Below are positions 1 through 47,758 of a stretch of DNA of 52,519 nucleotides, piece after piece (position 1 is the first letter of the stretch; the number at the start of each line of letters is the position of its first letter). A program made the position numbers and the translations under genes. This DNA is from a virus (taxonomy: Duplodnaviria; Caudoviricetes): IMG/VR virus record IMGVR_UViG_3300029268_000023, positions 1-52,519 of that record. One strand, written 5' to 3'. Below the pieces are notes generated by a model. That model was not told the origin of the DNA and ran no database searches. It was given only the letters and a program-made list of their open reading frames with translations.

Positions 1-240
1 TTGATCCCAATATAAACCGAAGCTTTTTAATTTGGCTTCGGTTTCAGCTCTATAACACTCTTTTCTTCCAGTTGTGAGAATGATTTTAGTACCTTCATGT
101 TCCCACTCATCAAACTTTCCTTTAACACCAGGAAGAATATCAGCTGACTTAGTTAGGTCTAATTGAATGCTCATACCCATACCAAAGTTAGTCCATATAG
201 TACCATCTATGTCAACAAAGACAGTTTTAACTCCGTGCAT
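1..240 (-). CDS. HAD-superfamily phosphatase (runs off window edge)
   Basis: Manual translation from ATG at 240: MHGVKTVFVDIDGTIWT...IILTTGRKECYRAETEAKLKSFGLYWDQ. Has the DxDGT motif I and the TGR motif II. Not in the ORF track. Confidence 0.85.
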   Translation of the reverse strand, partial: MHGVKTVFVDIDGTIWTNFGMGMSIQLDLTKSADILPGVKGKFDEWEHEGTKIILTTGRKECYRAETEAKLKSFGLYWDQ

Positions 241-241
241 G

Positions 242-1159
242 TTAATGACTCCCTGTTGGACGAACTGGAGTAGAAAGTGAATCTCCTTTTTTCCAGGCTT
301 GAGGACCTTCAACAGTTTTCTTCTTTCCAAGCTCTTTCACAAAATCAACATATAAATCATTACCAAGTTGATCCATCTGAACAAAGAAAGCTTCTGATAA
401 ATCAAGCATGTCTTTTGTGACTATAGGAGCTGTATTAGTTGGAGTCATGTAGACATGATCGTCCCATAAAGTGTTAAAGTTCTTAGCACCTACCTCATCA
501 AATATTAAATCAAATACTTTTGTTCCAATAGTTGGAACTGTTCCATATTGACAAGCCCACTTAACACCAGCTACTGTTCTCATAGCACCAGTGATTATTT
601 CTGTCTTTGAGTCTGTGAATTGACGAATGAAATTAATTTGCTCTTTAGCGTCAATACCTTTTTCTTCCATTCTACCAATAATGACACTGATATAACGGGG
701 CTTAAATGTTGCAGCCATTGCAGCTGTTGCACAATCAGCAAGACCAGTAACATTGAAATCAATATTTTGTTTAACTGTCTTGAAAGCTTCTGTTTCAATT
801 TGATTCATTGAGGATAGAACTTTATAGTATGGAGGTAGTTTGCACGCAATCTTTGTACGACCATCACTTGCAGATTGAAACATGTTAACCCACATAGCCA
901 TCTCATGAATATTCATCTTTGAATATGGTGGCTGTACATAAACAACACCTTTACCATCATCTCTAATCTTGGTAATTAAACGACAGAGAGCACTGGTCCG
1001 ATCAAGTGCTTCTTCCATTGTCTTAATATTAACTTTGCCAAATGCTGATGGATTGGTTGTTACTCCCAATACATCCTTCTCATCAACATATCCCCAAAGC
1101 TTTCTCCAAGCGTCAGAAATATAATCTACTGAAGCGGTGTCAAAAAAGAATTGTCCCAT
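242..1159 (-). CDS. Divergent transaldolase/FSA-family class I aldolase
   Basis: FFDTA, GVTTNPS, Schiff-base K (ACKLP), NVT, YISVIIGRM and GAMR match TalC/FSA family motifs. Confidence 0.85.
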   Translation of the reverse strand: MGQFFFDTASVDYISDAWRKLWGYVDEKDVLGVTTNPSAFGKVNIKTMEEALDRTSALCRLITKIRDDGKGVVYVQPPYSKMNIHEMAMWVNMFQSASDGRTKIACKLPPYYKVLSSMNQIETEAFKTVKQNIDFNVTGLADCATAAMAATFKPRYISVIIGRMEEKGIDAKEQINFIRQFTDSKTEIITGAMRTVAGVKWACQYGTVPTIGTKVFDLIFDEVGAKNFNTLWDDHVYMTPTNTAPIVTKDMLDLSEAFFVQMDQLGNDLYVDFVKELGKKKTVEGPQAWKKGDSLSTPVRPTGSH

Positions 1160-1907
1160 TATTAACCTCTTTCATTAAAATTGTTTCAATATTTTGATCA
1201 TATTTGATTCTAATTAATTTTATATTTTTACTACAGCAAAACTCATTTTTTATGTTATCTTTGTAACAAGTATCTATATATTCATTTTCTGTTGTTATAT
1301 GTCGACCTCCTACGCCTCTACCAACACCCTCAATAAAATGCTGTATACCATCATATTCTATACAGGTGTCTTTTTCTGTTAAATAAAAGTCAAACTTTAA
1401 CATTTTGTTAGTTTTTGGATTAACACATTCTCTAAATGTTTTCTGTTTTAAGAAATTTATATTGTGTTGCTCTAACCAAACTCTTATAAACGACTCTCCG
1501 GTTGACTCACAGCACTTTGGACAACCTGTTCTGCATGAAGTGTGCATGTCAGGAGCTTGCCAAAAAGCACCATGTTTATAACAAATAATTTGAACTTTGG
1601 TGCTATTGTTTACATACAACACAGTTGAGTAATCATACTTGTTTCCGTGTGCTTGTTTAGCTTTTTTTATAAACTGCTCTAAGGTTGCTGGTTTATTCTG
1701 TGGCCGGTGTTTAACACCACACTTAGGACACCCTTGTTTTACGTTAATATGATTATTTGGTGTTTGGATAAAATCTCCATGTATTGGACATTTTATACAG
1801 ATCTTTGTCATAGCTTTTACGTATACTGTTTTAGAATAATCATATTTATCGTTATGAACAGTTTTAGCTTTTTGAATGAATTCTTCTGTAGTTAATACTT
1901 TGCGCAC
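1140..1907 (-). CDS. Putative homing endonuclease: Zn-binding 'HGDKYDYS..CPxHG..CPKC' repeats plus PD-(D/E)XK (Vsr/DUF559-like) nuclease
   Basis: Two repeats, then S-x-GE...FDFYL...IEYDGIQHF...KNEFC...LIRI. Likely start is GTG at 1907, behind GGAGG (ORF track starts at 1922). Confidence 0.8.
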   Translation of the reverse strand: MRKVLTTEEFIQKAKTVHNDKYDYSKTVYVKAMTKICIKCPIHGDFIQTPNNHINVKQGCPKCGVKHRPQNKPATLEQFIKKAKQAHGNKYDYSTVLYVNNSTKVQIICYKHGAFWQAPDMHTSCRTGCPKCCESTGESFIRVWLEQHNINFLKQKTFRECVNPKTNKMLKFDFYLTEKDTCIEYDGIQHFIEGVGRGVGGRHITTENEYIDTCYKDNIKNEFCCSKNIKLIRIKYDQNIETILMKEVNNGTILF

Positions 1908-1913
1908 AAGATG

Positions 1914-2000
1914 CCTCCACATAGGATAAAAGTGAGAAATAGAAGTAATCTTTGATGTGGCAAAGAAACAGTTGCAACTGCTGTCCTTCTTATTTCTTCT
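1914..2000 (-). ncRNA. Structured cis-RNA motif, copy A (three-way junction; CCACA loop pairs with UGUGG at the SD)
   Basis: AGAAAUAAGAAG-GACAG-CAGUUGCAACUG-UU-UCUUUG-CCACAU-CAAAGA-UUA-CUUCUAUUUCU...UGUGGAGG. A covarying second copy lies at 40226-40312. Confidence 0.7.
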
Positions 2001-2002
2001 AT

Positions 2003-2767
2003 TTATGTTTTAGCAAAGATCGAAACATCCTCTGGAGTACCAAGTGGTATCATTGTCTCTGCTTTATAAGCAAACACTGGAATCTCATTATCTAAATATT
2101 CTTGAAAAACTTGTGACATATAAAACTCACCATTTACAGGATCTTTTGTATTTAGAATTTTTTTAGCTAATTTACGAAACATATTAACTGAGCTAAAATA
2201 GAATACACCAATAATAGGTTTATAACCTTTTGCAAGTGCTGTTGGATCTTTCTCTTTAATATCTTTTACTCTGCCAGTAGCTTCATCTATTTGAGCAAAA
2301 CACCATTTGGAACTATCATCAATTGGTTCAAAATAACATGTTGCAGCAAAAAATTCATGTTTAATTTTTTTGATAAACTCAAAAAAATGCTGTGAAGAGT
2401 GTAAATTATCAGAGTCTAAAAAGAGAATAGGTTTTTCACCAATATATGCTTGAGATGATATTGTTGAATGAGCTGTATCTAAATTGCCTCTTGTAAGATG
2501 GCTGAACATTTTATAATCTGTGAACGGATACAAACTTGACACAAAATTAACAAGGTTATATTGATTATCATGTTCTGTGCGGATAGCGAATGTTATAAAC
2601 TGTTTTTCAAGTTCTTCTCTTGGTAGTGAACTTAATGTCCATTCAAGAATTGTTTTACCTTTTATATTAATTAAAGGCTTTAGAGTTTTATACTCACTAT
2701 TTTCAAATCGAGATCCATTTCCAGCCATCAACACAACAATATCAATATTGTTTTCGAATGGAGTCAT
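2003..2767 (-). CDS. Sugar-phosphate nucleotidyltransferase (NTP_transferase fold)
   Basis: VVLMAGNGSRF...KPLI, LDSD, IKEK, GEFYMS, LGTPED. Confidence 0.9.
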   Translation of the reverse strand: MTPFENNIDIVVLMAGNGSRFENSEYKTLKPLINIKGKTILEWTLSSLPREELEKQFITFAIRTEHDNQYNLVNFVSSLYPFTDYKMFSHLTRGNLDTAHSTISSQAYIGEKPILFLDSDNLHSSQHFFEFIKKIKHEFFAATCYFEPIDDSSKWCFAQIDEATGRVKDIKEKDPTALAKGYKPIIGVFYFSSVNMFRKLAKKILNTKDPVNGEFYMSQVFQEYLDNEIPVFAYKAETMIPLGTPEDVSIFAKT

Positions 2768-3777
2768 TTTATCTCCTTGTAAATGTCGTTAAGAATAGAC
2801 AAACCAGTCATATACATCACTTTTTGACGGTCTAAACTATCATAGTGTCTTGCACACATTCCAACAAAAATAAGACCTTCAATTAACCGAACTCGAGTGA
2901 GATCAAAATCATTAAACTGTTTCTCAAATATTCCTTGAAGAAAATGTTTAGCTAACAAATCACAATCAAATGAGTATAAATATTCTTTTAGTGGAGTTAT
3001 TTCAGTTAATGAAAATTTGTCGTTTATGATAAACTCGTACATGCCTTCAAATGAGTGAAACAGTTTAGCAACGTCATACAAAGGATCTCCGTATACTCCA
3101 CCTAATGAACCAAAACTACCACGAGGATCGATGAACTTAAAGATTGGTTCATTATTATAAGACATTCCACAAAGAATATTTGAGAAGCACATGTCACCAT
3201 GAATAACGTAAAATGGAATATCTCTACAAAGACTTTTTTCAATGTATTCTTTAATATCATTCCAAATAACTTCAAAGTTCAAGCATTTTTTTCCATTTAT
3301 TATTAATTCTTTCTCACTACACAAATTGGAGAAAAATTCAAAATTAGTTTTAAGAGCGTTATACTCTCGTTCTGTTTTATTAACATACATATCTCGAGAA
3401 TATCGGTTAGTGTACGGAGTTTTGCCTTCTTCACAACCATTAAAATCTTCCGTTATCAATTTATAAAGCTTGTGAGCAACACTTTTCCAGAAATCAAGTG
3501 ATATGAAAGACGATTGTGTGTCGTCTATCATAGCCATTCCTAAATTAGGATAAGCATAATATTCCATCATTAGATGATAAGTCTTGCAACCATCTTCTGT
3601 CCAATAATCTATAACTTTTGGAAATAGTGCACTAAGATGACCACAATCTTTTTCTATTTGCTGAAAGTATTCATATTCAAGTTGTAATTTAGAATTAGAA
3701 CTCTTCTTTGTAATTCGATTTGTGTGAAGATCGAACTCAAATGAATTATACGCTCTTGTCACAAGCTTTTGATCCAT
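2764..3777 (-). CDS. APH/choline-kinase-like phosphotransferase (capsule-biosynthesis type sugar kinase)
   Basis: RAYNSF, HGDMCFSNIL, FIDPRGSFG, GDPLYDVAKL. Confidence 0.85.
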   Translation of the reverse strand: MDQKLVTRAYNSFEFDLHTNRITKKSSNSKLQLEYEYFQQIEKDCGHLSALFPKVIDYWTEDGCKTYHLMMEYYAYPNLGMAMIDDTQSSFISLDFWKSVAHKLYKLITEDFNGCEEGKTPYTNRYSRDMYVNKTEREYNALKTNFEFFSNLCSEKELIINGKKCLNFEVIWNDIKEYIEKSLCRDIPFYVIHGDMCFSNILCGMSYNNEPIFKFIDPRGSFGSLGGVYGDPLYDVAKLFHSFEGMYEFIINDKFSLTEITPLKEYLYSFDCDLLAKHFLQGIFEKQFNDFDLTRVRLIEGLIFVGMCARHYDSLDRQKVMYMTGLSILNDIYKEIK

Positions 3778-4391
3778 TAGTTATATACCTCATTATAAAT
3801 TTCTTCAACTGAAATTATATTAAGATTGAACTTTGCAGCGAGAACTTCAAGATCAGGCATGCGAGACATAGAACCATCTTTATTCATGATTTCAATAATA
3901 ATAGAAATTGGTTGTAAGTCAGCAAGTTTACACACTTCGATTGAAGATTCTGTATGGCCACGTCTTTCAGTAAGAAGTCCTTTTTTTGGTCTTAATCCGA
4001 ACATATGTCCAGGTCTACATAGCTGTTCTGGTTTAGTGTTTTTGTTAAGCAAAAGCTTAACAACTTCAAGACGATCACTGATACTCATACCCGTTGTTGC
4101 ATTATCTCTTGCATCAAAAGAAAGTGTAAATGGTGTTCCAAATGGATCAGTTGGCTTATCAGTCATCATAGGAATCTGTAAGCGATCAAAAATCTCACCA
4201 ACTGCAGGAATACACATCAATCCACCAGCTTCTCTTTTAATAAAAGCAAGATTATCAATTGTAGCCTTTTCTGCAGCTAAAACAAGGTCACCCTCATTCT
4301 CACGATTATAGTCATCAACAATGATAATTGGCTTTCCATTCAATACATCTTCAATAATTCTTGCGACATGAGCGTTCTTAAACTGTTTCAT
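3777..4391 (-). CDS. ribB: 3,4-dihydroxy-2-butanone 4-phosphate synthase
   Basis: VDDYNRENEGD, GLMC, GTPFT, TTGMS.SDR, RPGHMF, RRGHTE and E..N.DG.M.R: full RibB motif set. Confidence 0.92.
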   Translation of the reverse strand: MKQFKNAHVARIIEDVLNGKPIIIVDDYNRENEGDLVLAAEKATIDNLAFIKREAGGLMCIPAVGEIFDRLQIPMMTDKPTDPFGTPFTLSFDARDNATTGMSISDRLEVVKLLLNKNTKPEQLCRPGHMFGLRPKKGLLTERRGHTESSIEVCKLADLQPISIIIEIMNKDGSMSRMPDLEVLAAKFNLNIISVEEIYNEVYN

Positions 4392-4405
4392 TTAAACTCC
4401 TTTGA

Positions 4406-4714
4406 TTAATTATCATTTGTATCTATTATAGCGTGAATTGCATTTATCATACACATACCATCTTTTTGAGGAACAGCACATAAGGCTATATGTGTACGTG
4501 TAAAGTATTCCATATCTTCTAATTCTTTTACATCACTTGAACCAACGAGTCCAATGAGAGCTGATCGAAGTAACTTGATTTTATCTTCTGCTGCACGAAG
4601 CGGATGTTTTTCGCAAACTTTTATGTGATCAGTTAAAACTTGATCTCCAGATGCTGGAGTGTCTTGTGGATATTCATGTCCACAATAAATGCAGGTTAGA
4701 ACTCTTTTTTCCAT
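4406..4714 (-). CDS. Hypothetical protein with CxxC/H/C Zn-binding motif
   Basis: TCIYCG...HIKVCEKHP; AGGAG SD. Confidence 0.7.
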   Translation of the reverse strand: MEKRVLTCIYCGHEYPQDTPASGDQVLTDHIKVCEKHPLRAAEDKIKLLRSALIGLVGSSDVKELEDMEYFTRTHIALCAVPQKDGMCMINAIHAIIDTNDN

Positions 4715-4724
4715 TATACACTCC

Positions 4725-5681
4725 TTAATCTATAAACACCTTTTTAAATTGTTCCATGACAGTTTTGGGATTAAACCGTTCACTATACTTATCGTAGTTT
4801 CGTTGTTTGTTATAGCTATTTAGTAATAGATCAACAAGCTGATTTTCATTGTTGTAGTAGAAACCATCATTAGCTAAAATCCAAATATGAGATCGTTGTT
4901 CAGATCCGTAGTAAGTTATAACTGGTTTATTACAAATGGAGAACTCTGCAACTGCAAGTCCAAAGCTTTCTCCTAACGCTCTTCCATGTAAACAAACATC
5001 ACATGTGTTTATGAACATCCTTTTCTTCAACATGTCAGCTGTACCTCTTAGATATATAATTCGTTCATGTTGAAATGGAAGAGGTCTTGTGTTCAGTAGT
5101 AAGAAGTAGAGGTCCGATCTTTTATCGAGAGCACGCTTAATAGCATTATATACAAATGGAATATCTAACTGATCATATCCACCATGTCGCCCTACAACGA
5201 AAGCGCCTTTAGGAATGTTCAATCTTTCTCTTAAATTCTGATTTGTTTCAGGAAGTTGAACAATATGAGGCACAATCGGTACATTTATTTGTCTTCTTTT
5301 CTGTACGTCCTGAGATAGCCATTCAGATATAACAGCCCATTTATCTCCATGAGGATCTAAATCAAATACACCATGAATTGCTGACTTGGTTGAAAAACTT
5401 ATGTTTGCATCAAATCCACCACTCTTTAGTGAGTAAAACAAATCAGCTGATTGCTGAAAAACAATTTTCTCTATTATTTGATCTTCATTATGGTCATACC
5501 AAATAACTTTAAATCTGTTCTCAAACTTTTCAACAACCAAAGGATCTGTAAAAGAACTATTCTTTCGACACATTATAATAGAATTATGTCCCAATAGTTC
5601 TTCACAATAGTGAGCATAATCGTATATAGCTACTTCTGTGCCTCTATTGCTAAGTTGATTACATTGGAAGAGAATATTCAT
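4725..5681 (-). CDS. GT-B (GT4-like) glycosyltransferase
   Basis: RGTEVAIYDYA, VGRHGG, GESFGLAVAEF (ExxGxxxxE), KPVIT. Confidence 0.85.
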   Translation of the reverse strand: MNILFQCNQLSNRGTEVAIYDYAHYCEELLGHNSIIMCRKNSSFTDPLVVEKFENRFKVIWYDHNEDQIIEKIVFQQSADLFYSLKSGGFDANISFSTKSAIHGVFDLDPHGDKWAVISEWLSQDVQKRRQINVPIVPHIVQLPETNQNLRERLNIPKGAFVVGRHGGYDQLDIPFVYNAIKRALDKRSDLYFLLLNTRPLPFQHERIIYLRGTADMLKKRMFINTCDVCLHGRALGESFGLAVAEFSICNKPVITYYGSEQRSHIWILANDGFYYNNENQLVDLLLNSYNKQRNYDKYSERFNPKTVMEQFKKVFID

Positions 5682-5905
5682 TAATATAACTCTTCTTTGA
5701 CATACTTAATAGTCTGTTTAATAGATTTATATATCATAATTAATGCTGGTATGGGTAGAGGTATTAACCAAAATAAAACTTGTTTTCTATTTTCGAAATA
5801 AGTGACAAATAATGCTTCTGAATCTGTTTTAAGAAGAATTGCCACTGTAATAATTTGACACAAATAAATCACACCAACTGTTATTAGTAGAGCCATTATA
5901 ATCAT
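5681..5905 (-). CDS. Small membrane protein
   Basis: Two hydrophobic stretches; coupled to neighbours. Confidence 0.65.
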   Translation of the reverse strand: MIIMALLITVGVIYLCQIITVAILLKTDSEALFVTYFENRKQVLFWLIPLPIPALIMIYKSIKQTIKYVKEELY

Positions 5906-6096
5906 TATAAATCCTTAAAGTTTTCAATCATTTCAGGTATCATTTCAAAAAGTAGCACATATATACAATAGAAAGGAATCATATTTAATAAAAAGTGTTT
6001 CTTACTATTGAATTCGCTTGAATGTAGTCGAGCAAATGTTATTAAATATTGTATAGCTAATAAATGTAACCCTATTATGATGAGAAATACAATCAT
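5905..6096 (-). CDS. Small membrane protein, similar layout to 5681-5905
   Basis: Hydrophobic; F.(S/N)(K/R)K..L...IP motif shared with neighbour. Confidence 0.6.
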   Translation of the reverse strand: MIVFLIIIGLHLLAIQYLITFARLHSSEFNSKKHFLLNMIPFYCIYVLLFEMIPEMIENFKDL

Positions 6097-6722
6097 ATCA
6101 CTTCCTCCTTAACGAATATATCATCAAATTCCAATTTAGTGCAGGAATATCCTTTAGTTTTCATGAAGTTTCTAACTTCATCTGTACCATTGTTATTTTC
6201 AACAGAAAAACAATGGATATATGTGTTATCAAAATCAATTGATTGTAATACACTCATTTCCGCGCCCTCAACATCGATTGAACAATAGTCAACATGATGT
6301 ATGTTTAATTTGTCAGTTAGTTTAGACAGTCTGCAACATTTAACTTCAATAATATTAGATGTTCCACCATACATCTTTAACTCTCTTTCAATTCTATCCT
6401 TATGTGTCTGATCAAAACATTCTACAATTCCACTTAGCATTTCTGTGTAGCCAGATAAACATTGAAAATTAACACTTTGTCGATCATCGTTAAAGATTGC
6501 AGCATTAAGAACTATTTTTCTACCATTTTGCTTTAACTTTTCAAATACATCTGGATTTGGTTCAATGCAAACACCTGTCCAGTTTCTATATTTTTCAAAG
6601 AAGTAAGTATTGTTTCCTGTAATTCCATCGTTACTTCCTATATCTAAAAAGTATCCTCTATATTTACCTTTAAATAAATCATCTATAAATTTATCTTGCC
6701 CTATCTGTGAATAGTATTTCAT
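6093..6722 (-). CDS. FkbM-family SAM methyltransferase
   Basis: YSQIGQD, FLDIGSNDG, WTGVCIEPN, SIDVEGAE, VENN. Confidence 0.9.
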   Translation of the reverse strand: MKYYSQIGQDKFIDDLFKGKYRGYFLDIGSNDGITGNNTYFFEKYRNWTGVCIEPNPDVFEKLKQNGRKIVLNAAIFNDDRQSVNFQCLSGYTEMLSGIVECFDQTHKDRIERELKMYGGTSNIIEVKCCRLSKLTDKLNIHHVDYCSIDVEGAEMSVLQSIDFDNTYIHCFSVENNNGTDEVRNFMKTKGYSCTKLEFDDIFVKEEVI

Positions 6723-7615
6723 TAGTTGAAAATCTCCTGAATTTTAGTATAAATATTGTAATTCTTATAATAAGATAACTTCATTTTTGTTAAAATGTCA
6801 ACTCGTTTTTTATAGTTATCTTTTTCTATAATATTTTGAAGCTGTAATAGGATAGTATCTGAATTAAGGCACAAATCAATATAACAACTATCATCATAAA
6901 TTTTATGAGCATTTGGTGCGCCATAATACACTGGAACGGTGTCGCACAGCAAACAATCAATAAACTTTTCAGTTAAATAGTTGTTCTCAGCTGTATTCTC
7001 GACAGCTATTGAATACTCATAATCGATTAGCCCATCACTTTTGTTATCAAGAGGTCCTTTTATACGCTGGTCGTGTTTATCAGTCCATCCTCTACCGTAT
7101 ATATCAATTGGTAAATCAGACTCTAAAATCTGTTTGGCTAAACGAGCACGAGCTCCATATAAAATGACATTATCGTCTGTTACTTGTCCATTACTAACAA
7201 TAAAACTCATTTTCTTTGTTTTATTAAAAGTATTATTCAGATACTTGTTAATAGGATCTTTGTCCATATGATACAACATCATAGCTGGATGACTCTCAAA
7301 GTTTTCAATAAATGGTGTGTTTCTGTCAAGAAGCCATACATCATGAAAATATACTTTGCTGCAATAAGATCCAATAGTTATATCCCAAGAATTAGACCAA
7401 CTTGGTTCCATTATAAAACCAATCACATTTTCTTTAGCACACTTAATTTGAGCAGGATTGAAACATCTATTGAAAACAATTAAGTAGTCATAGTCATCAT
7501 TATACGTAATGATAAAGTTGGGATTGAAGTTCCCCTCAGTAATATAGTTTCTTATAAAGCGATTGTATATTTCGAAATCAGATGTCCACTGACACACAAC
7601 TTTGAACTTTTTCAC
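6722..7615 (-). CDS. GT10 (fucosyltransferase-like) glycosyltransferase
   Basis: MEPSW, SFIVSN, IDIYGRG, YEYSIAVEN...YLTEKFIDC...VPVYYG. Likely start is GTG at 7615, not 7771. Confidence 0.8.
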   Translation of the reverse strand: MKKFKVVCQWTSDFEIYNRFIRNYITEGNFNPNFIITYNDDYDYLIVFNRCFNPAQIKCAKENVIGFIMEPSWSNSWDITIGSYCSKVYFHDVWLLDRNTPFIENFESHPAMMLYHMDKDPINKYLNNTFNKTKKMSFIVSNGQVTDDNVILYGARARLAKQILESDLPIDIYGRGWTDKHDQRIKGPLDNKSDGLIDYEYSIAVENTAENNYLTEKFIDCLLCDTVPVYYGAPNAHKIYDDSCYIDLCLNSDTILLQLQNIIEKDNYKKRVDILTKMKLSYYKNYNIYTKIQEIFN

Positions 7616-7749
7616 CAATTCAATCCTCTTCCCCAACACGATGCAAACATAAAGCCAACAACAGCAAAAAATAATATTGCAAGTGCTGCAGGAATTCCAA
7701 TCACTAATCCAACTGTCCACATCAGCCAAACAGGAATAATTATAGTCAT
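7612..7749 (-). CDS. 45-aa membrane peptide (not in ORF track)
   Basis: MTIIIPVWLMWTVGLVIGIPAALAILFFAVVGFMFASCWGRGLNW*. ATGA overlap with the upstream stop and GTGA overlap with the downstream start. Confidence 0.7.
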   Translation of the reverse strand: MTIIIPVWLMWTVGLVIGIPAALAILFFAVVGFMFASCWGRGLNW

Positions 7750-9335
7750 TTGTACTTATCCTCTCTACCAATTACGTTAACTTGTTCTAATATATACTCA
7801 TCTAACTGTTTACTATTCATAGATGCTATTCTTCCAAGCAATTCACAATTGTTTTTATAGTTTGGGTTATCATGAGGTCCATGTCTTGGATGAGGTAAAT
7901 GCAAACAATTATAAGTGAGCTCAATAATTGAAACACCAGTTTGCTTTACCTTAAAAGATAACGCATCATCTTCTGCTCCCCATCCCTCAAACCCCTCATC
8001 CCACCCACCAATAGCAAGAAAAGTTTCTCTATTGAATAGCACTAAACCAGCTGTTGGACCAACTCCTCTTGCATTTACTCCAACCATATCATCTGTAACA
8101 GCTTTATTCTGTCTAAATCTATTTACGATACTCATATCAACAATATCATGCATACCATTTTTAAATGGATTTACAACACTATAGTTCTGAGCCTCTGCAA
8201 AAGCGTGAACAAATTCTTTCTTTTTCATTATAATATCAGTGTCAGCGAAAGCAAGAATAGGTTTATTTGTTTTTAATGCTGCTACATTAAACGCCCAACT
8301 TCTATTGAATGGCTTTTCATTGAATAAAAATGTTTGTTTGATATTAGGTCTATTAAACGGTAGTTGTAGTCTACTTTGAGTGTCCTGTTCAATTATTTGA
8401 ATCTCAAGATCGCTACCAAAATAATTTTCCAACATTTCAAGTAACATAATCAAATTATCTTTACGCTCTTTAAATTCCTCTTTATAAAGAATAATGTACG
8501 ATACTGTTTGTGCATACTCTTTTACTTCTCTTTCACGTCTTGCTTTCCAAAATTCATTGTTGTATTTAATAGCATTTTCATATGTCATTCTGATCTGAGA
8601 CGTCTTAACTTTCCAACTTTGATACTCTTTATCATCTTGAGTACCAGGATGATTTATAAATGTTGTCTCAACAACTGAAATACTATGTCCTGCATTAACA
8701 GTGTCTCTCATGAGAATAGCATCATCTGGTGCATATACTCCTACAACTTGATAACCATGTATCTTTTTCCATAAATCAACACTAATGAAAAGAGCTCCAC
8801 CAGCTATACCTACTCCATTAGACGGCCATGAAACAACTTCATCGCCAATTGTATGACGTCTATCGAACTTATGAAGCCAATGTGCATTATCACCATGCAT
8901 ATTAATGCCAAACAAACCAAATGGTCTTTTATGTAATGTTTCAACATATGGCACAAGATTGGTGAGTCTATCAATCAAATGAGCGTTTTCTGGATATGTT
9001 TCAAAAACAATGTCTGAATCAAATGTTAAAATATACTTCGTTTCAGGATGAGCTGTTAAATATTGGTTAACTAAATGGTTTACAACATAAGCTTTCCCAA
9101 AATTGTCTTCAAATTTAAAGAATTTACATCTACCTGAGAAATATTTTTTATATAAAGTTAAAATTCTTTGAAGATATTCTGGCTCAGCATATCCACCAAA
9201 CACAAAATCAATATCTTTATAATTATTTGCCTCAAAATATTTAGCAAGAGATGTGATTGAATTAACATTGAAGTCAAACATATCTTTAGTTGGACAAAAT
9301 ATTTGCTGAACAACTACAACTTCACTCATAATCAA
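7746..9335 (-). CDS. Two-domain GT-A glycosyltransferase (GT2-like plus GT7/galactosyltransferase-like)
   Basis: N-terminal NFGKAYVVN, FDSD, IAGGALFI. C-terminal PFNRSWAFN, ADTD, GGWDEGFEGWGAEDD. Confidence 0.85.
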   Translation of the reverse strand: MIMSEVVVVQQIFCPTKDMFDFNVNSITSLAKYFEANNYKDIDFVFGGYAEPEYLQRILTLYKKYFSGRCKFFKFEDNFGKAYVVNHLVNQYLTAHPETKYILTFDSDIVFETYPENAHLIDRLTNLVPYVETLHKRPFGLFGINMHGDNAHWLHKFDRRHTIGDEVVSWPSNGVGIAGGALFISVDLWKKIHGYQVVGVYAPDDAILMRDTVNAGHSISVVETTFINHPGTQDDKEYQSWKVKTSQIRMTYENAIKYNNEFWKARREREVKEYAQTVSYIILYKEEFKERKDNLIMLLEMLENYFGSDLEIQIIEQDTQSRLQLPFNRPNIKQTFLFNEKPFNRSWAFNVAALKTNKPILAFADTDIIMKKKEFVHAFAEAQNYSVVNPFKNGMHDIVDMSIVNRFRQNKAVTDDMVGVNARGVGPTAGLVLFNRETFLAIGGWDEGFEGWGAEDDALSFKVKQTGVSIIELTYNCLHLPHPRHGPHDNPNYKNNCELLGRIASMNSKQLDEYILEQVNVIGREDKYK

Positions 9336-10128
9336 GTTCCTTTAGCCAAAGTTTTACAATAACTTCTTTCGGAAGAGACCAAAAACTATCCGATGAAGAA
9401 TTGCCATGAAAATTAGTATTAGTTAGAGCACATTCTCCTTTTATATAAGACCAACTTTCACTTATTGAGCAATGATAAACATCAGTAACCGAATCATAAA
9501 TTTTTTGATGATCGTTTTCATACCCCATAAATTGAACATTATCATTATACTTATATTGTTCAATATACTCTTTAAAATACTGAATATCAGTTATAAGTCC
9601 ATATACCAATACTAATTTACACCCATCATTTAAAGCATTGTTAATTGCAATGTGGGTTTGTTTATTTCTATCAATTGAGCCAATGACTCCTCCAACTTTA
9701 AGTAGCGGTTTTGAATTAGGTTTTATATCTGGTAAAATATTAGGCAATATAAATGATGGGTGGTTAACTTCATGAAAGGATTTTTGTTTTTCAGATACAA
9801 AATGGATCTTATCAAATATTTGATATTTAATCGAATCAACTCTCATTACATCACACTCATGGCAACTATAAATGAGTTTTTTTACTGGCACATCTTCTCT
9901 TATTTTAAATTTATCAAACTTGGATGTAAAATGAGCAATTAGATAATCACTACCATCTGCATTAATTGATACTGTTTTTGATTGTTTAGATCGACATAGT
10001 TGTGTATGATATGAATGTGGACCATAAAAAATAGTGTCATAACCACACTCATTTAGAGCATTAGTTAAATTTGCAAACGCGTGCGTGCTGCCACCAGGTC
10101 CTGACCAACCACTAAATATTTTTATCAT
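9322..10128 (-). CDS. GT-B (GT4-like) glycosyltransferase
   Basis: GPGGS..., IGSIDRNKQ, VQFMGY, SESWSYIKGEC. Confidence 0.75.
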   Translation of the reverse strand: MIKIFSGWSGPGGSTHAFANLTNALNECGYDTIFYGPHSYHTQLCRSKQSKTVSINADGSDYLIAHFTSKFDKFKIREDVPVKKLIYSCHECDVMRVDSIKYQIFDKIHFVSEKQKSFHEVNHPSFILPNILPDIKPNSKPLLKVGGVIGSIDRNKQTHIAINNALNDGCKLVLVYGLITDIQYFKEYIEQYKYNDNVQFMGYENDHQKIYDSVTDVYHCSISESWSYIKGECALTNTNFHGNSSSDSFWSLPKEVIVKLWLKELDYE

Positions 10129-11062
10129 AAATATTTTCTTTCAATATTTGTTCAACTTTTCTTAATTTATAATATGGTATTCGTAACAAGTTTATTTTTC
10201 TACTAACACAATATTTATTTTTGACAGTATCGTGTGCAAAATGATAATCATAATCTTTTTGAGTTATTTGGTGTTTATTTACATGACCACCAATACCTTC
10301 TTTAAAATGCTGCTTTCCATCAAACTCTATAATTAAGTTATATTTCGGTAAATAAAAATCGAAAGGTAATCTTCTATGTGTGCTATTATTAATACAATCA
10401 TTAAAAGTTTTTTGGCATTCATGTTCTATATTATTTTTAGATAACCAATCTTTTATTTTTATTTCACCTTTTGAATTTCTGCATTTAGAACAACCATTTC
10501 CACTTAGATGATTTCGAGGAGATTGTAAAAATATTCCATGTAAAGAACAAATAATTTCAACCTTTACACCACTATTCTTGTAAATAACTTTAGAATAATC
10601 ATATTTGTCACCATGAATATCACGTGCATCTTTTATAAAACTTTCAATTGTTTTAGCATTTCTTCCAAACCGTGTATCATATCCACATTTAGGACATCCA
10701 ACCTTTGATTTTAAAAATCTTCCAGCCGGAATCATTATTTCGCCATGAATAGGACAAACAACTACAATCTTTGAGTTAAAGTTTTTATATTGAACTTTAG
10801 AGTAATCATATTTATTACCATGAATTTCTTTAGCTTTTTGTATGAATTCGTCAGTTGAATTTGAATAAACATTGCTGCACTTTTTACATTTTGATTTTTT
10901 ATATGTATGAGTTGCTGGCATCTGCCAGAACTCACCATGTTCAGGACATATAATACAAACCTTTGTAATGTTATTGATGTATTCAACTTTAGAGTAATCA
11001 TACTTATCACCATGAATTTCTTTAGCTTTTTGTATAAAATCTTCTCGAGTCATTTTAACCAT
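10112..11062 (-). CDS. Putative homing endonuclease, three Zn-binding repeats plus PD-(D/E)XK nuclease
   Basis: HGDKYDYSKV...CPxHG x3; SKGE, LPFDFYLP, IEFDGKQHF, LLRIPY. Confidence 0.82.
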   Translation of the reverse strand: MVKMTREDFIQKAKEIHGDKYDYSKVEYINNITKVCIICPEHGEFWQMPATHTYKKSKCKKCSNVYSNSTDEFIQKAKEIHGNKYDYSKVQYKNFNSKIVVVCPIHGEIMIPAGRFLKSKVGCPKCGYDTRFGRNAKTIESFIKDARDIHGDKYDYSKVIYKNSGVKVEIICSLHGIFLQSPRNHLSGNGCSKCRNSKGEIKIKDWLSKNNIEHECQKTFNDCINNSTHRRLPFDFYLPKYNLIIEFDGKQHFKEGIGGHVNKHQITQKDYDYHFAHDTVKNKYCVSRKINLLRIPYYKLRKVEQILKENIYDKNI

Positions 11063-13404: not shown

Positions 13405-13623
13405 TTATATTTTACCTAATCTACTTTTTAAACTTGCTATATATTTAATATGACTCTGCTTGTTGGCAATCTTAGATTGTATTGATACTTTTGCTTCTGG
13501 AGTCTTAGCTGATGTTAACTGTTTAGTCAAGTTGGTTATTGACTCTCTATCTCTCATAATCATCTTATCATACATTTCTGATTTATCAGACATCTGCTCT
13601 TCTAAGTAATCTTTTAAATTCAT
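13405..13623 (-). CDS. Putative internal head protein
   Basis: MNLKDYLEE N-terminus. Confidence 0.55.
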   Translation of the reverse strand: MNLKDYLEEQMSDKSEMYDKMIMRDRESITNLTKQLTSAKTPEAKVSIQSKIANKQSHIKYIASLKSRLGKI

Positions 13624-14222
13624 TTAATTTTGCTCCTTAACATATCAAATATACTTTTATTATAACCAACCGTCATTTTACTAAATGTTTCAAAATCATT
13701 CTGTTTAATTGCATCTCTTATCTTTGAGGCGGACACATCTTCACCCGTTCTGTGTATTTCTTCAACCTTAATATTTAGATTCAATTTAAGTTTATATCTA
13801 TCTATTTGTTGTTGATATGACTTGACTCTATCTGTACCACAAAATATAGCAATAGGTTCCATGTTCTGTTCTCTTAGTGTTTTTAACATTTCTCCTAAGA
13901 ATGCTGATGGAATTTCATAAATGTTCTTTGTCAAATTCTTAGTTGATGTTTGCAATAGTCTTTTTTGTGTGTTGAAATCAAGAGGATTTTTTTCTTTATT
14001 TAATCCTGTTCCTTCACCCTTCACAATGAAGATAACTGGTTCAGCACTTGGATATTTCTTCTTCATATCTTCAATAATTTTAACATGTGCTATAGATGGA
14101 GGCTGCATTCGTCCAACAAACATAACAACTTTTCTTCCACCTCTTTTAAGTGGAACCTGATCAAGTGTTACTGCTTCTTTTAAAAGAGCCAAACGCTCTG
14201 AATAAAATAAATGAAATCTCAT
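13620..14222 (-). CDS. Cytidylyltransferase-like (HxGH-family) nucleotidyltransferase
   Basis: VGRMQPPSIAH, KNPL, CGTDR, VSASKIR; resembles the T4-like phage cytidyltransferase family. Confidence 0.8.
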   Translation of the reverse strand: MRFHLFYSERLALLKEAVTLDQVPLKRGGRKVVMFVGRMQPPSIAHVKIIEDMKKKYPSAEPVIFIVKGEGTGLNKEKNPLDFNTQKRLLQTSTKNLTKNIYEIPSAFLGEMLKTLREQNMEPIAIFCGTDRVKSYQQQIDRYKLKLNLNIKVEEIHRTGEDVSASKIRDAIKQNDFETFSKMTVGYNKSIFDMLRSKIK

Positions 14223-14805: not shown

Positions 14806-14934
14806 TTATTCTCCGAAATCTAATTCTTTTGGTTCTTCGTTATCTGTATCAAAATATTCAAAACCGGTTGTACCTAATAATTCTTCAAAGTCATCGAGCG
14901 ATCCAGCATCATCGATAGTGTCATTGTTGTCCAT
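14806..14934 (-). CDS. 42-aa very acidic peptide (not in ORF track)
   Basis: AGGAGG SD; MDNNDTIDDAGSLDDFEELLGTTGFEYFDTDNEEPKELDFGE*. Confidence 0.6.
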   Translation of the reverse strand: MDNNDTIDDAGSLDDFEELLGTTGFEYFDTDNEEPKELDFGE

Positions 14935-15923
14935 TAAATATCCTCCTTTTTAATTAGCTCAGCTTTACCTAACTTTACCATTTTTATTATTTTCTGTCTA
15001 TATAGGTTTAGCTTTTGGCAGCAATCTTTTATAGTATCATATTTAATGCCATCGATGATAACACCTACTGCTGCAGGATTTTTATCTCCACACATTCCTT
15101 TATGACCAGTTCTTGATTTAACAAATTTCTGAATTGATTCTTTGGAATGAGGACGATCGCCTTTAATAAAACCATTCGGTATAATATCATCTTTATTTAT
15201 AACTTTTTTAACATCTAAATCTTTATTATAAATAATAATTCTACCTTTATACTTACCTATTCTATTTATTGACATTTTGTGTTTGGTATCATCTGATAAT
15301 TTTTTCCCTTTATTAGCAACAGATAATATCATTTTATGTTCTTCAGTTCTTTTTTTCCCTTTATTTCCATTTCCTCTTTTTATTTTCTCTTCATCCGCCC
15401 GTTTTGATGATCCATATATATTTTCATAAGTTTTACCTTTATATAAACGGCTCATATATTCTTTGTGTTCTTTAGTTTTAGGTTTTCCACCAATAACAAA
15501 CCCGATTGGAATATTTTCAGTTTTATTAATACGTTTTTCTACATTTATTTCTTTATTGTATATTGCAATTTGACCTGTTCTTAATAAACTTTGGTGTTTA
15601 CAAATCTCTTTTTTATTAGGATGGTTTGATATTAAATCTCCGCCAGTTCCACCTTTGTCAATATTATATCCAATTTTTTGATCACAAGCGTTTAACTTAT
15701 CTATCCAATAAATTTCTCGTTCATTTACATTGTTATCTTCACAAGCTTCTAATGTTTCACGTTTAAAATTTTCAGCTCCATATTTTTTAATAGATCTTTT
15801 TAAATATAGACCTGATCCTAAATATCCATCTTCAGAAGACGTATAGTGTTGACCTACATAAATTTTGTTATTCACTATATTAGTAGTTTTATAAATTATA
15901 GGTTTATTATTTAATTCAATCAT
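14934..15923 (-). CDS. GIY-YIG (Seg-like) homing endonuclease with NUMOD3-type repeats
   Basis: IIYKTTN...IYVGQH...YLGSG...E.YWI...GYNIDKGG; KGKKRTEEHK, KGKKLSDDTKHKMS. Confidence 0.88.
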   Translation of the reverse strand: MIELNNKPIIYKTTNIVNNKIYVGQHYTSSEDGYLGSGLYLKRSIKKYGAENFKRETLEACEDNNVNEREIYWIDKLNACDQKIGYNIDKGGTGGDLISNHPNKKEICKHQSLLRTGQIAIYNKEINVEKRINKTENIPIGFVIGGKPKTKEHKEYMSRLYKGKTYENIYGSSKRADEEKIKRGNGNKGKKRTEEHKMILSVANKGKKLSDDTKHKMSINRIGKYKGRIIIYNKDLDVKKVINKDDIIPNGFIKGDRPHSKESIQKFVKSRTGHKGMCGDKNPAAVGVIIDGIKYDTIKDCCQKLNLYRQKIIKMVKLGKAELIKKEDI

Positions 15924-16309
15924 ATATTATAACTACTGTAAATTTGTTGTATATTAAACTTATTACATATAGTCCAGTTTTTCTTTTCTTCATAAGGAAG
16001 GACGAACACTCTTTTATTGTATGGTGTTATATCTTCAATATCTAAGTCAATAAGCTTCCAGTTGTATAGACAAAACGCAATTGAATTACGTCTCATTAAA
16101 TCTTCTTCAGAAATATTATTATAGCTTTTTTCTCGTGTCAAAGTAAACAGCTGTTTAAAGTGAACAAGAAAATAACAATCGTTATTTCTCCACAAATAGC
16201 AACTTGGGTAAATTATCTTTTCTTTTAAATTACCAACACCTATTCGAGTTAAGCTCTCAATTATAATTTTATCATCAACCAGTAAACTTATTTCTAATAT
16301 ATCTATCAT
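15920..16309 (-). CDS. regA: Translational repressor RegA
   Basis: ESLTRIGVGN..EKIIYPSCYL...YFLVHFKQLF...RRNSIA..L..W.L matches T4 RegA. Confidence 0.85.
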   Translation of the reverse strand: MIDILEISLLVDDKIIIESLTRIGVGNLKEKIIYPSCYLWRNNDCYFLVHFKQLFTLTREKSYNNISEEDLMRRNSIAFCLYNWKLIDLDIEDITPYNKRVFVLPYEEKKNWTICNKFNIQQIYSSYNI

Positions 16310-46568: not shown

Positions 46569-46751
46569 TTAAACAGCAGAGGCACTAAGTGCAATAGTTG
46601 CTGTAGATGCTGTTTTTGGATTAAAATTAACAATTGTTGTTTGTAGTATATTAGCTGAGTCAATATAACTAACTAATATAGTATTGTTTCCTGTTGGTGT
46701 AATATCAACTATCGTGACACTTTCACCATTCATAATAGCTGTAACATTCAT
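46569..46751 (-). CDS. Small hypothetical, likely virion protein
   Basis: 60 aa; coupled to HEG stop; S/T/A-rich end. Confidence 0.55.
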   Translation of the reverse strand: MNVTAIMNGESVTIVDITPTGNNTILVSYIDSANILQTTIVNFNPKTASTATIALSASAV

Positions 46752-47758
46752 TTTTTATCCTTTGTAAGGAGTTTGAGGTAGTTGTCTATGATATTATCAA
46801 TTTGATCAATATTTATATAGGGTATTCTAAGAATATTTATATTATTGTTTAAACAGTACTGGTTTTTCATGATATCTTTTCTTTGTATATCTTTAAACTG
46901 ATTCAGTAATTCTTCGTTAGATAACCTACCACGTGAATAATCTACAGGTCTAAAATGTTGCTCTCCATCAAACTCTATACATAAATTATGATCAGGTAGA
47001 TAAAAGTCAAATTTTAATGATGATTTATCTTTTAAACCAATAAATCTTTTTTGTTCTTTAAATTTAATTCTATTATTCATGAGGTAAATATTAATTATCT
47101 CTTCACCTTTTGATCTATTACATTTAGGACAACCATTACCATTTAAATGGTCTCCTGCTTTTTGTGTATATTCACCATGATTAGGACAAATTATTGTTAC
47201 ATTTTTATAGTATCCATCATAATTAGTTTTAGAATAGTTATATTTATCATTGTGAATTATATTAACTTTTTCTATAAAAATTTTTGTATTGTATTTATGG
47301 ACTTTTTTAATAACCTTAATCTTTTTTGGCTTTCTTTGTTTATCACCTCTTAGGATGCTTGCGCATTTAAAGCAACCAAAACCTCTTTGATGAGTTGTTG
47401 GCAGTTGTTCAAATATTCCATGAGTAGGACATATTATCTTTACTTTTTCTGAGGCATTTTTCCAATCAACTAAAGAATAGTCATATTTATCACCATGATG
47501 TTTTTTGGATCTTTTTAAGAATTCTTCTAATGTACCAGTTAAACTGTTTTTAGTTCTTTCATAACCACATTTAGGACAACCTCTTTGATGGATTGTGTGG
47601 TCTTTAGGTGATATTTCGAAAGTGTGATTATGTTTAATGCAAATAATTTTAACTTTGGATCGAAAGTTTACATATTCAACCAAAGAATAGTCATATTTGT
47701 CACTATGTATTTTAACAGCTTTTTCAATAAAATCTTCTTTTGTTTGCTTTATAGCCAT
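46748..47758 (-). CDS. Putative homing endonuclease, three Zn-binding repeats plus PD-(D/E)XK nuclease
   Basis: KYDYS...C..H..CPKC x3; SKGE, FDFYLP, IEFDGEQHF, LRIPY. Confidence 0.82.
   Translation of the reverse strand: MAIKQTKEDFIEKAVKIHSDKYDYSLVEYVNFRSKVKIICIKHNHTFEISPKDHTIHQRGCPKCGYERTKNSLTGTLEEFLKRSKKHHGDKYDYSLVDWKNASEKVKIICPTHGIFEQLPTTHQRGFGCFKCASILRGDKQRKPKKIKVIKKVHKYNTKIFIEKVNIIHNDKYNYSKTNYDGYYKNVTIICPNHGEYTQKAGDHLNGNGCPKCNRSKGEEIINIYLMNNRIKFKEQKRFIGLKDKSSLKFDFYLPDHNLCIEFDGEQHFRPVDYSRGRLSNEELLNQFKDIQRKDIMKNQYCLNNNINILRIPYINIDQIDNIIDNYLKLLTKDKK

Follow-up and report, generated by a model that had tools for sequence, protein, structure and literature searches.

The stretch of DNA analysed here, referred to as the window, is the entire IMG/VR virus record IMGVR_UViG_3300029268_000023 (52,519 bases), at the left end of which lies a cassette of sugar-related genes that includes a gene for a RibB-type 3,4-dihydroxy-2-butanone 4-phosphate (DHBP) synthase and that may direct the synthesis of an unusual nucleoside-diphosphate (NDP) sugar from ribulose 5-phosphate (Ru5P). 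The G+C content of the window is ~31–35%, and every long open reading frame (ORF) lies on the minus strand. Based on PHROG matches to tail sheath, large terminase, major head protein and baseplate wedge, and on the presence of a RegA translational repressor (positions 15920–16309; PF01818, 74.2 bits), which fits such an affiliation, the window is a fragment of a T4-like myovirus, an aquatic phage.

The six ORFs of the locus are transcribed in the order RibB, sugar-phosphate kinase, sugar-phosphate nucleotidyltransferase (NTase), homing endonuclease, a divergent transaldolase-like (TAL-like) enzyme and a small HAD phosphatase (Table 1). The RibB and kinase genes overlap by 1 nt, the kinase and NTase genes by 4 nt, and a 1-nt gap separates the TAL-like and HAD genes, while the endonuclease ORF is preceded by an 80-nt gap and followed by a 20-nt overlap with the TAL-like gene. 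The sugar cassette is interrupted by this endonuclease between NTase and TAL-like enzyme, and no counterpart in that position was flagged in a BLAST screen of related viral loci. An earlier note on this DNA had described five co-oriented, mostly coupled genes at the end of a glycosyltransferase operon. The five genes are indeed all on the minus strand as placed, and glycosyltransferase genes do lie upstream, together with one for a methyltransferase, but the endonuclease ORF had been overlooked and the HAD gene is incomplete. A near-identical contig (L002; RibB 100% identical) extends beyond the left end of the window, and there encodes the whole 120-residue HAD protein, two DUF7796 proteins, further endonucleases and two Methyltransf_24 proteins.

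Table 1. Genes of the cassette, followed by those lying upstream of it, in window coordinates
Feature	Position	Strand	Remarks
RibB, DHBP synthase	3777..4391	-	204 aa; PF00926
Stand-alone APH-fold sugar-phosphate kinase	2764..3777	-	337 aa; PHROG 21938
Sugar-phosphate nucleotidyltransferase (NTase)	2003..2767	-	254 aa; PF00483
Homing endonuclease	1140..1922	-	PHROG 559 E 2.9e-52; PF05265; outside pathway
Divergent transaldolase/FSA-fold (TAL-like) putative Schiff-base enzyme	242..1159	-	305 aa; PF00923
Small HAD phosphatase	1..240	-	ATG at 240; N-terminal 80 residues, then contig end
Cys/His-rich ORF	4406..4714	-	102 aa; between glycosyltransferase and RibB
Glycosyltransferase, weak GT1-family match	4725..5681	-	PF00534 19.4 bits, under cut-off
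Two very hydrophobic small ORFs	5681-5905, 5905-6096		74 and 63 aa; between glycosyltransferase and FkbM
FkbM methyltransferase	6093-6722	-	PF05050 71.1 bits
GT10-like fucosyltransferase	6722-7771	-	PF00852 46.7 bits
GT2/GT7C glycosyltransferase	7746-9335	-	PF02709 46.3 bits

Predicted activities of the cassette enzymes

The RibB protein scores well above the cut-off of PF00926 (214.3 bits; cut-off 26.4) and also exceeds that of the ribB equivalog TIGR00506 (180.5; cut-off 177.45). The whole protein can be aligned with the solved DHBP synthases 3h07, 1tks and 3mgz (up to 149 bits), without gaps in the RENEGD, TTG-S, PGH and RRGHTE stretches, which hold the metal- and phosphate-binding active-site residues. 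Since the sequence is canonical, we infer that the protein makes DHBP from Ru5P. It is 44–52% identical to housekeeping RibBA proteins, about as close as to its phage relatives, and its closest long relative is a RibB-Methyltransf_24 fusion (protein P0121, 378 aa; 62% identity). The setting, by contrast, is not that of a riboflavin-pathway RibB. The earlier note had seen no further riboflavin gene in the window, and a search there that covered lumazine synthase, GTP cyclohydrolase II and riboflavin synthase, but not RibD_C, gave 0 matches for each. Furthermore, lumazine synthase (PF00885), GTP cyclohydrolase II (PF00925), riboflavin synthase (PF00677) and RibD_C (PF01872) were each found in 0 of five cassette-bearing phage genomes, with positive controls detected; these genomes comprise the full S-SKS1 record, one contig that has terminal repeats and is 100% complete, and three others estimated at 90%, 81% and 67%. 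In addition, cassette RibB proteins are fused or translationally coupled to sugar-activating enzymes.

The stand-alone kinase matches PHROG 21938 (E 4.7e-46), while no Pfam match over threshold and no NCBIfam model was obtained, and its profile returned nothing significant among PDB sequences (best E 0.064). Its AlphaFold2 model (pLDDT 91.9) has 5-methylthioribose kinase, an anomeric kinase acting on a furanose, as its top Foldseek match (closest by E-value), with aminoglycoside, choline and fructosamine kinases close behind. The kinase family profile also aligns with the Bas46 homologue of AfhE, an enzyme of the phage arabinofuranose pathway discussed below (hhalign 98.0%, E 1.8e-13, 277 columns, residues 211–507), in an alignment that takes in the HGD..FSN and FIDPRG.FG motifs. 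This comparison identifies the kinase as a homologue of the kinase domain at the C-terminus of AfhE. The family is large, with 567 relatives at E ≤0.001 among 1020 candidates, and full-length matches among 50,697 cultured-phage records are limited to two S-SKS1 records, with seven partial matches in other phages. The cassette is thus available in a cultured pair of phage and host, S-SKS1 and Synechococcus WH7803.

The NTase, which scores 38.6 bits against PF00483 (cut-off 21.2), keeps the G-x-G-x-R ... K signature, with A15, G16, G18, R20 and K30 invariant in 22 sequences, and PHROG 3980, a family of NTase+RibB fusions, matches both the NTase and the RibB of the window. The best PDB match of the NTase family profile is 4evw, an uncharacterised structural-genomics entry (139.5 bits); GlmU, RmlA and HddC follow at 45–54 bits, as against 28–31 bits for IspD, LicC and inositol-phosphate (polyol-phosphate) cytidylyltransferases. 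Its score against the MurU model is 19.6 bits (cut-off 250). The HAD protein carries a DxDGT motif (PF03767, 27.3 bits) and belongs to a subfamily that takes in the phosphatase of the freshwater cyanophage S-SRM01, where it follows a SIS isomerase and an NTase-kinase fusion; this subfamily aligns with the HAD usual in the related viral loci (group A, see below) at 96.2% in hhalign. SWZG_00040 of S-SKS1 (L004, 13633–13989), listed in RefSeq as a ‘phosphoheptose isomerase’, appears instead to be a 118-residue HAD/NT5C-type phosphatase (PF06941, 37.4 bits).

The TAL-like enzyme is a divergent member of its superfamily, scoring 39.3 bits against PF00923 (cut-off 27), an E-value of 9e-26 against PHROG 440 and 33.9 against the FSA equivalog TIGR00875, far under the cut-off of 245.95. 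Among 50 members of the family, D7, T34-T35-N36-P37, K107, N136, S158, G162 and R163 vary little or not at all, K107 being present in 50/50. A HMMER alignment to the Thermoplasma transaldolase 3s0c places D7, K107, N136 and R163 on D6, K86, N108 and R135; by this alignment K107 is the Schiff-base lysine. Family, fold, this lysine, the N-terminal Asp, the TTNP motif, the Asn and the Ser/Arg phosphate site are shared with transaldolases and FSA. The catalytic pair, however, which is Glu plus Phe in transaldolases and Gln plus Tyr in FSA, differs. The strand equivalent to the transaldolase Glu strand reads VVYVQPP, with neither Glu nor Asp (its register is uncertain), Gln76 being at least 95% conserved and position 74 being Tyr or His, and Ile160 occupies the Phe/Tyr site in 47/50 sequences. 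A C-terminal extension of ~80 residues and restriction to viruses are further differences, the nearest Atlas clusters being 98–100% viral. S-SKS1 encodes a canonical talC (171.4 bits) besides its cassette enzyme (46.7 bits), and a tblastn search with the cassette enzyme against the 50,697 phage records returned just the two S-SKS1 records. Judged by these comparisons, the cassette enzyme is distinct from the usual pentose-phosphate talC.

One to three DUF7796 genes are found beside the cassette. While the DUF7796 profile returned nothing among PDB sequences, the predicted structure (pLDDT 91.5) has a GT-A fold, with BoGT6a, glycogenin and alpha-1,3-galactosyltransferase as best matches (TM-score ~0.5). 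A kinship between DUF7796 and WavE was also considered, but is unsupported since the profile scores 0.5% against a WavE protein.

Linkage of the cassette in viruses and cells

The earlier note had suggested a gene-neighbourhood search. When IMG/VR was scanned with 31 aligned relatives of the kinase, 205 stretches matched, of which 185 were confirmed and the best 80 retained. These 80 viral loci comprise the twin contig L002, 52 loci with a stand-alone full-length kinase (group A, L006–L057) and 27 further loci (group B, L058–L084). Linkage was counted within ±8 kb of the kinase, using family hidden Markov models built from the same loci that they scored, and dereplication at 80% kinase identity reduced the 52 group A loci to 33 clusters. 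RibB was present in 48/52 group A loci, NTase in 48/52, the small HAD in 50/52, the TAL-like enzyme in 49/52, DUF7796 in 46/52 and an SDR epimerase/dehydratase in 38/52. RibB, NTase, HAD and TAL-like genes occur together in 28 of the 33 dereplicated clusters, and the predicted linkage is thus conserved in phages. The five incomplete clusters are L046 (whose HAD, of the window subtype, was picked up by BLAST), L045, which has no NTase, and L018, L054 and L056, which have neither RibB nor TAL-like gene; part of the absences stem from truncated contigs such as L052, which starts inside the kinase gene.

Gene order is nearly fixed as RibB-kinase-(NTase)-HAD-TAL, with the TAL-like gene placed before HAD in the window and in L046. 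In 20/52 group A loci NTase and RibB are fused, as they are in S-SKS1, where the order is NTase-RibB (SWZG_00042), kinase (00041), HAD (00040), TAL-like enzyme (00039) and GT1-family transferase (00038). In a near-identity search of the 50,697 phage records, bases 1–6000 of the window found no match. A RuBisCO-like protein was rejected as a core member of the cassette, as it occurs in only 8/52 loci and has several residues of true RuBisCO replaced in an alignment to 2cwx. This form IV-like protein lies near the cassette in L003 (7443–8639), L024, L033, L035–L038 and L049, beside small ORFs of 117–146 residues.

A scan of prokaryotes, with one genome per species, matched at least 600 stretches, of which 570 were confirmed and the best 80 used. 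Among these best 80 of 570 cellular loci, RibB and TAL-like genes are both present in two (L085 and L086) and both absent from 78; here, as in the viral loci, the two genes are present or absent together. One of the two loci encodes a RibB-NTase-kinase triple fusion of 817 residues (L086, 6489–8942) on a contig binned with a Planctomycetota metagenome-assembled genome. In cells the kinase mostly forms the C-terminal half of a ~550-residue protein that has an NTase domain at its N-terminus, and is followed by a small HAD in 61 and by a second, window-type NTase in 77 of these 80 loci. This trio is found in polysaccharide loci with GT2, GT4, WavE and Wzy genes, and its HAD scores 83.8 bits, under cut-off, against the EcbF/BcbF capsule phosphatase model. 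Kinase, HAD and NTase are orthologous in type to those of the phage cassette and share its glycan-locus setting, whereas the rarity of RibB and TAL-like genes and the additional NTase domain fused to the kinase set the cellular loci apart. The trio of NTase-kinase, HAD and second NTase (L085–L164; e.g., L090, 7296–10041, and L154, 7974–10060) is apparently uncharacterised; it is spread over many phyla and Thaumarchaeota, and a WavE-family gene often follows it. In the literature on the C. jejuni capsule and on WavE and fructose, the product of the trio was not identified.

The closest characterised relative, which the earlier note does not mention, is the arabinofuranose pathway of phages HY126, Bas46, RB69 and DLP3, which serves DNA arabinosylation. 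According to PMC13326640, which cites the primary work as its references 49 and 56, an arabinose-5-phosphate isomerase of the SIS family makes arabinofuranose 5-phosphate (Araf5P) from Ru5P, AfhE of HY126 phosphorylates this at C1, the Mg-dependent phosphatase AfhF takes off the 5-phosphate, and AfhE then forms UDP-arabinofuranose, i.e., Araf5P is converted via Araf-1,5-P2 and Araf1P to UDP-Araf. The group B loci carry an NTase-kinase fusion of this kind; that of L061 matches 364 phage records, among them arabinosylating coliphages and Acinetobacter phages, and in 347 the match covers at least 80% of the fusion. An SIS isomerase gene stands beside the NTase-kinase gene in 16/27 group B loci, as opposed to 0/52 group A loci and 0/80 of the best cellular loci. 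In S-SRM01 (L166, 3518–13524), SIS, NTase-kinase and phosphatase genes lie within a fucose/methyl glycan island that also encodes a GDP-mannose dehydratase, a GDP-fucose synthase, fucosyltransferases, GT2 enzymes and an FkbM methyltransferase, and the window and group A loci carry the same kinds of genes. Because SIS and RibB+TAL-like genes are mutually exclusive and occur in similar islands, they are taken on these comparisons to be alternative first steps ahead of the same kinase/phosphatase/NTase chemistry. Furthermore, as the S-SRM01 trio lies in a glycan island and not next to DNA-modification genes, phage NDP-arabinofuranose may serve non-DNA glycans too.

The cassette of the window would share with the AfhE/AfhF pathway its starting compound Ru5P, a homologous kinase domain, and a HAD and an NTase encoded alongside. 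It differs in that RibB and the TAL-like enzyme stand in place of SIS, in that kinase and NTase are separate genes with the NTase from another subfamily, in that no significant similarity links its HAD to the Bas46 phosphatase, and in that the partner for DNA modification, a ThyA-like (5-hydroxy-dCMP) synthase, is missing from four of the five cassette-bearing genomes. The MupP/AmgK/MurU system of peptidoglycan-sugar recycling and the GmhA/HddA/GmhB/HddC system of heptose activation similarly combine a HAD, an anomeric kinase and an NTase to convert an omega-phosphate to an NDP-sugar, but have no close homology to the cassette enzymes.

A candidate route to an NDP-sugar and competing explanations

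Taken together, these data make it rather probable that the cassette produces a DHBP-derived NDP-sugar from Ru5P. RibB would convert Ru5P to DHBP, a four-carbon methyl ketone phosphate. As DHBP alone cannot cyclise, the TAL-like enzyme would have a necessary role: its lysine Schiff base would join a DHBP-derived unit to a small carbonyl, most likely glyceraldehyde 3-phosphate, giving a sugar phosphate able to close to a furanose, for example a methyl-ketose or a branched sugar. The kinase would then phosphorylate the anomeric hydroxyl, the HAD strip the terminal phosphate and the NTase form the NDP-sugar, the order (1,omega-bisphosphate to 1-phosphate to NDP-sugar) being that of AfhE/AfhF by analogy. 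Finally, DUF7796 GT-A transferases would place the sugar into a fucose-containing, methylated glycan.

Three chemistries may be envisaged for the TAL-like step. The three-carbon hydroxyacetone unit of dephosphorylated DHBP could be transferred to D-glyceraldehyde 3-phosphate, yielding 1-deoxy-D-fructose 6-phosphate; FSA makes 1-deoxy sugars from hydroxyacetone. Since fructose is arabino-hexulose, 1-deoxy-D-fructofuranose 6-phosphate would be anomeric-methyl Araf5P, and hence a close mimic of the known substrate of the homologous kinase. It is the leading candidate product, but a tentative one, and this specific chemistry is considered doubtful; its drawbacks are the release of formaldehyde and the need for prior dephosphorylation by the HAD or a host phosphatase. 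Alternatively, a DHBP Schiff base could eliminate phosphate, as DHBP does in lumazine synthase, and add to a triose phosphate to give a C-methyl or dideoxy-diulose phosphate, or DHBP could act as ketone acceptor of dihydroxyacetone or glycolaldehyde, giving a hexulose or pentose phosphate with a C-methyl branch, in which the phosphate of DHBP is retained. C-methyl-branched pentose or hexulose phosphates fit the data as well as 1-deoxy-fructofuranose 6-phosphate does. The fuller proposal, that DHBP, otherwise known only as a precursor of riboflavin, is a building block of an undescribed NDP-sugar (e.g., NDP-1-deoxy-D-fructofuranose or a C-methyl-branched sugar), with the RibB+TAL-like pair replacing the isomerase of the phage arabinofuranose pathway, and that this is widespread in aquatic phages, is given a little less than an even chance. 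A literature search found no paper on a RibB/NTase/kinase sugar cassette, most subscription journals being outside its coverage.

Several observations weigh against the proposed route. The TAL-like step is purely inferred, from co-occurrence and chemistry. As its alignment shows neither the transaldolase Glu nor the FSA Tyr, the TAL-like enzyme may catalyse a non-aldol reaction; DHBP, having no free 4-hydroxyl, is not a classical transaldolase donor and, being a ketone, is a poor aldolase acceptor. The Foldseek TM-scores of the kinase are low (0.37–0.56) and differ little between APH enzymes of many specificities. The NTase shows weak similarity to the N-terminal domain of AfhE (35.8% in hhalign), and the comparison of the HAD with the Bas46 AfhF homologue is not significant (BLAST E 0.76; hhalign 3.7%). 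In addition, the raw locus counts are non-independent, as the loci were chosen via the kinase and many are close relatives, and the window itself is incomplete, with an estimated record completeness of 24%.

The same precursor could conceivably be used without a new C-C bond, if DHBP or butanetriol phosphate were activated as a CDP- or NDP-alcohol and added as a phosphodiester, as with CDP-ribitol, CDP-glycerol and CDP-6-fructose. The NTase-RibB fusion resembles the fused reductase-cytidylyltransferases of CDP-ribitol synthesis, the bacterial partner NTase reaches 29.7 bits with IspD (cut-off 27), and CDP-6-D-fructose of C. jejuni is reportedly made from fructose 6-phosphate. However, the co-occurring TAL-like enzyme, anomeric-type kinase and HAD would all be left without a role, and the adjacent transferases are of predicted GT-A fold rather than of the LicD/TagF type; we regard this explanation as quite unlikely. 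The GT-A fold of the DUF7796 models, the preference of the NTase profile for sugar-1-phosphate enzymes over cytidylyltransferases and the proximity of the kinase to 5-methylthioribose kinase lead us to favour an NDP-sugar/glycosyl-phosphate route instead. Such a route might still end in a common NDP-furanose (for instance NDP-arabinofuranose or NDP-fructofuranose) made by kinase, HAD and NTase while RibB and the TAL-like enzyme just tune pentose-phosphate flux. This would accord with the homology between the cassette kinase and an arabinose-5-phosphate kinase, with the use of pentose-phosphate-pathway intermediates by both RibB and TAL, and with the occurrence of the trio without RibB and TAL-like genes in 78 of the best 80 cellular loci. 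Yet RibB destroys Ru5P, the precursor of arabinose 5-phosphate, and no group A locus has an SIS isomerase; moreover, the fusions of RibB to NTase and kinase speak for substrate hand-over, and the TAL-like enzyme appears from its alignment to have lost the catalytic pair of true transaldolases. We therefore consider flux tuning unlikely.

Hypermodification of DNA, as with UDP-arabinofuranose in RB69-like phages, is another conceivable destination of the product proposed here, in place of a protein- or lipid-linked glycan. Hydroxy- and hydroxymethyl-pyrimidine DNA requires a thymidylate-synthase-family gene, and such a gene (PF00303) is found in only one of the five cassette-bearing genomes, where it is not adjacent to the cassette. 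Furthermore, the fucosyltransferase, GDP-fucose, O- and C-methyltransferase and sulfotransferase genes carried by the islands suit a complex glycan better. On the other side, the cassette of L003 adjoins genes for gp44, gp45 and an SMC-like protein of replication, and a GT1-family transferase lies beside the cassette in the window and in 17/52 loci. According to PMC13326640, the DNA arabinosyltransferases of DLP3 also match GT-B enzymes, and the sole characterised homologous pathway is the one serving DNA arabinosylation. On balance, a DNA-directed product is decidedly unlikely. Least probable by far is that RibB is an auxiliary gene boosting host riboflavin and the TAL-like enzyme a pentose-phosphate auxiliary, the two lying beside sugar genes by chance. 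It is true that the RibB sequence is canonical, that the other riboflavin enzymes come from the host, and that talC is common in cyanophages. Nevertheless, gene order is fixed in 28/33 clusters, and scattered RibB positions, which were looked for in related phages, were not seen; RibB is fused to NTase, kinase or methyltransferase, S-SKS1 has a second, canonical talC, and none of the five genomes has other riboflavin genes. The view of the earlier note that RibB is not a riboflavin auxiliary gene is borne out by the conserved sugar-cassette linkage, the joint presence or absence of RibB and TAL-like genes, the NTase fusions and this lack of other riboflavin genes.

Neighbouring genes and biological meaning

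Upstream of RibB, the GT1-family transferase has cassette-adjacent homologues that are 38–43% identical; its S-SKS1 counterpart is SWZG_00038, which comes after the TAL-like gene. The adjoining Cys/His-rich ORF gave no Pfam, PHROG or NCBIfam match, and its BLAST counterpart among the 80 viral loci is in the twin contig alone. The two hydrophobic ORFs may encode membrane proteins of the glycan island. A cytidylyltransferase-like protein (13620–14222; PF01467, 28.6 bits; PHROG 3041) is encoded a few kb upstream of the island. Further endonuclease paralogues of the PHROG 559 type lie at 10112–11062 and 46748–47758 of the window and a GIY-YIG endonuclease at 14934–15923, while the twin contig has endonucleases at 4590–5588, 7858–8802 and 10205–10591.

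If the proposed route is correct, RibB would represent the first riboflavin-pathway enzyme in glycan biosynthesis, and the cassette a new way of making a rare sugar. It would further show how phages can exchange the opening enzymes of such a cassette around a constant kinase/phosphatase/NTase core, and it would provide a function for the virus-restricted TAL-like family, for a large uncharacterised kinase family and for DUF7796. In that case, virome matches of this kind to ‘ribB’ and ‘transaldolase’ ought to be kept out of tallies of vitamin or carbon-flux auxiliary genes.

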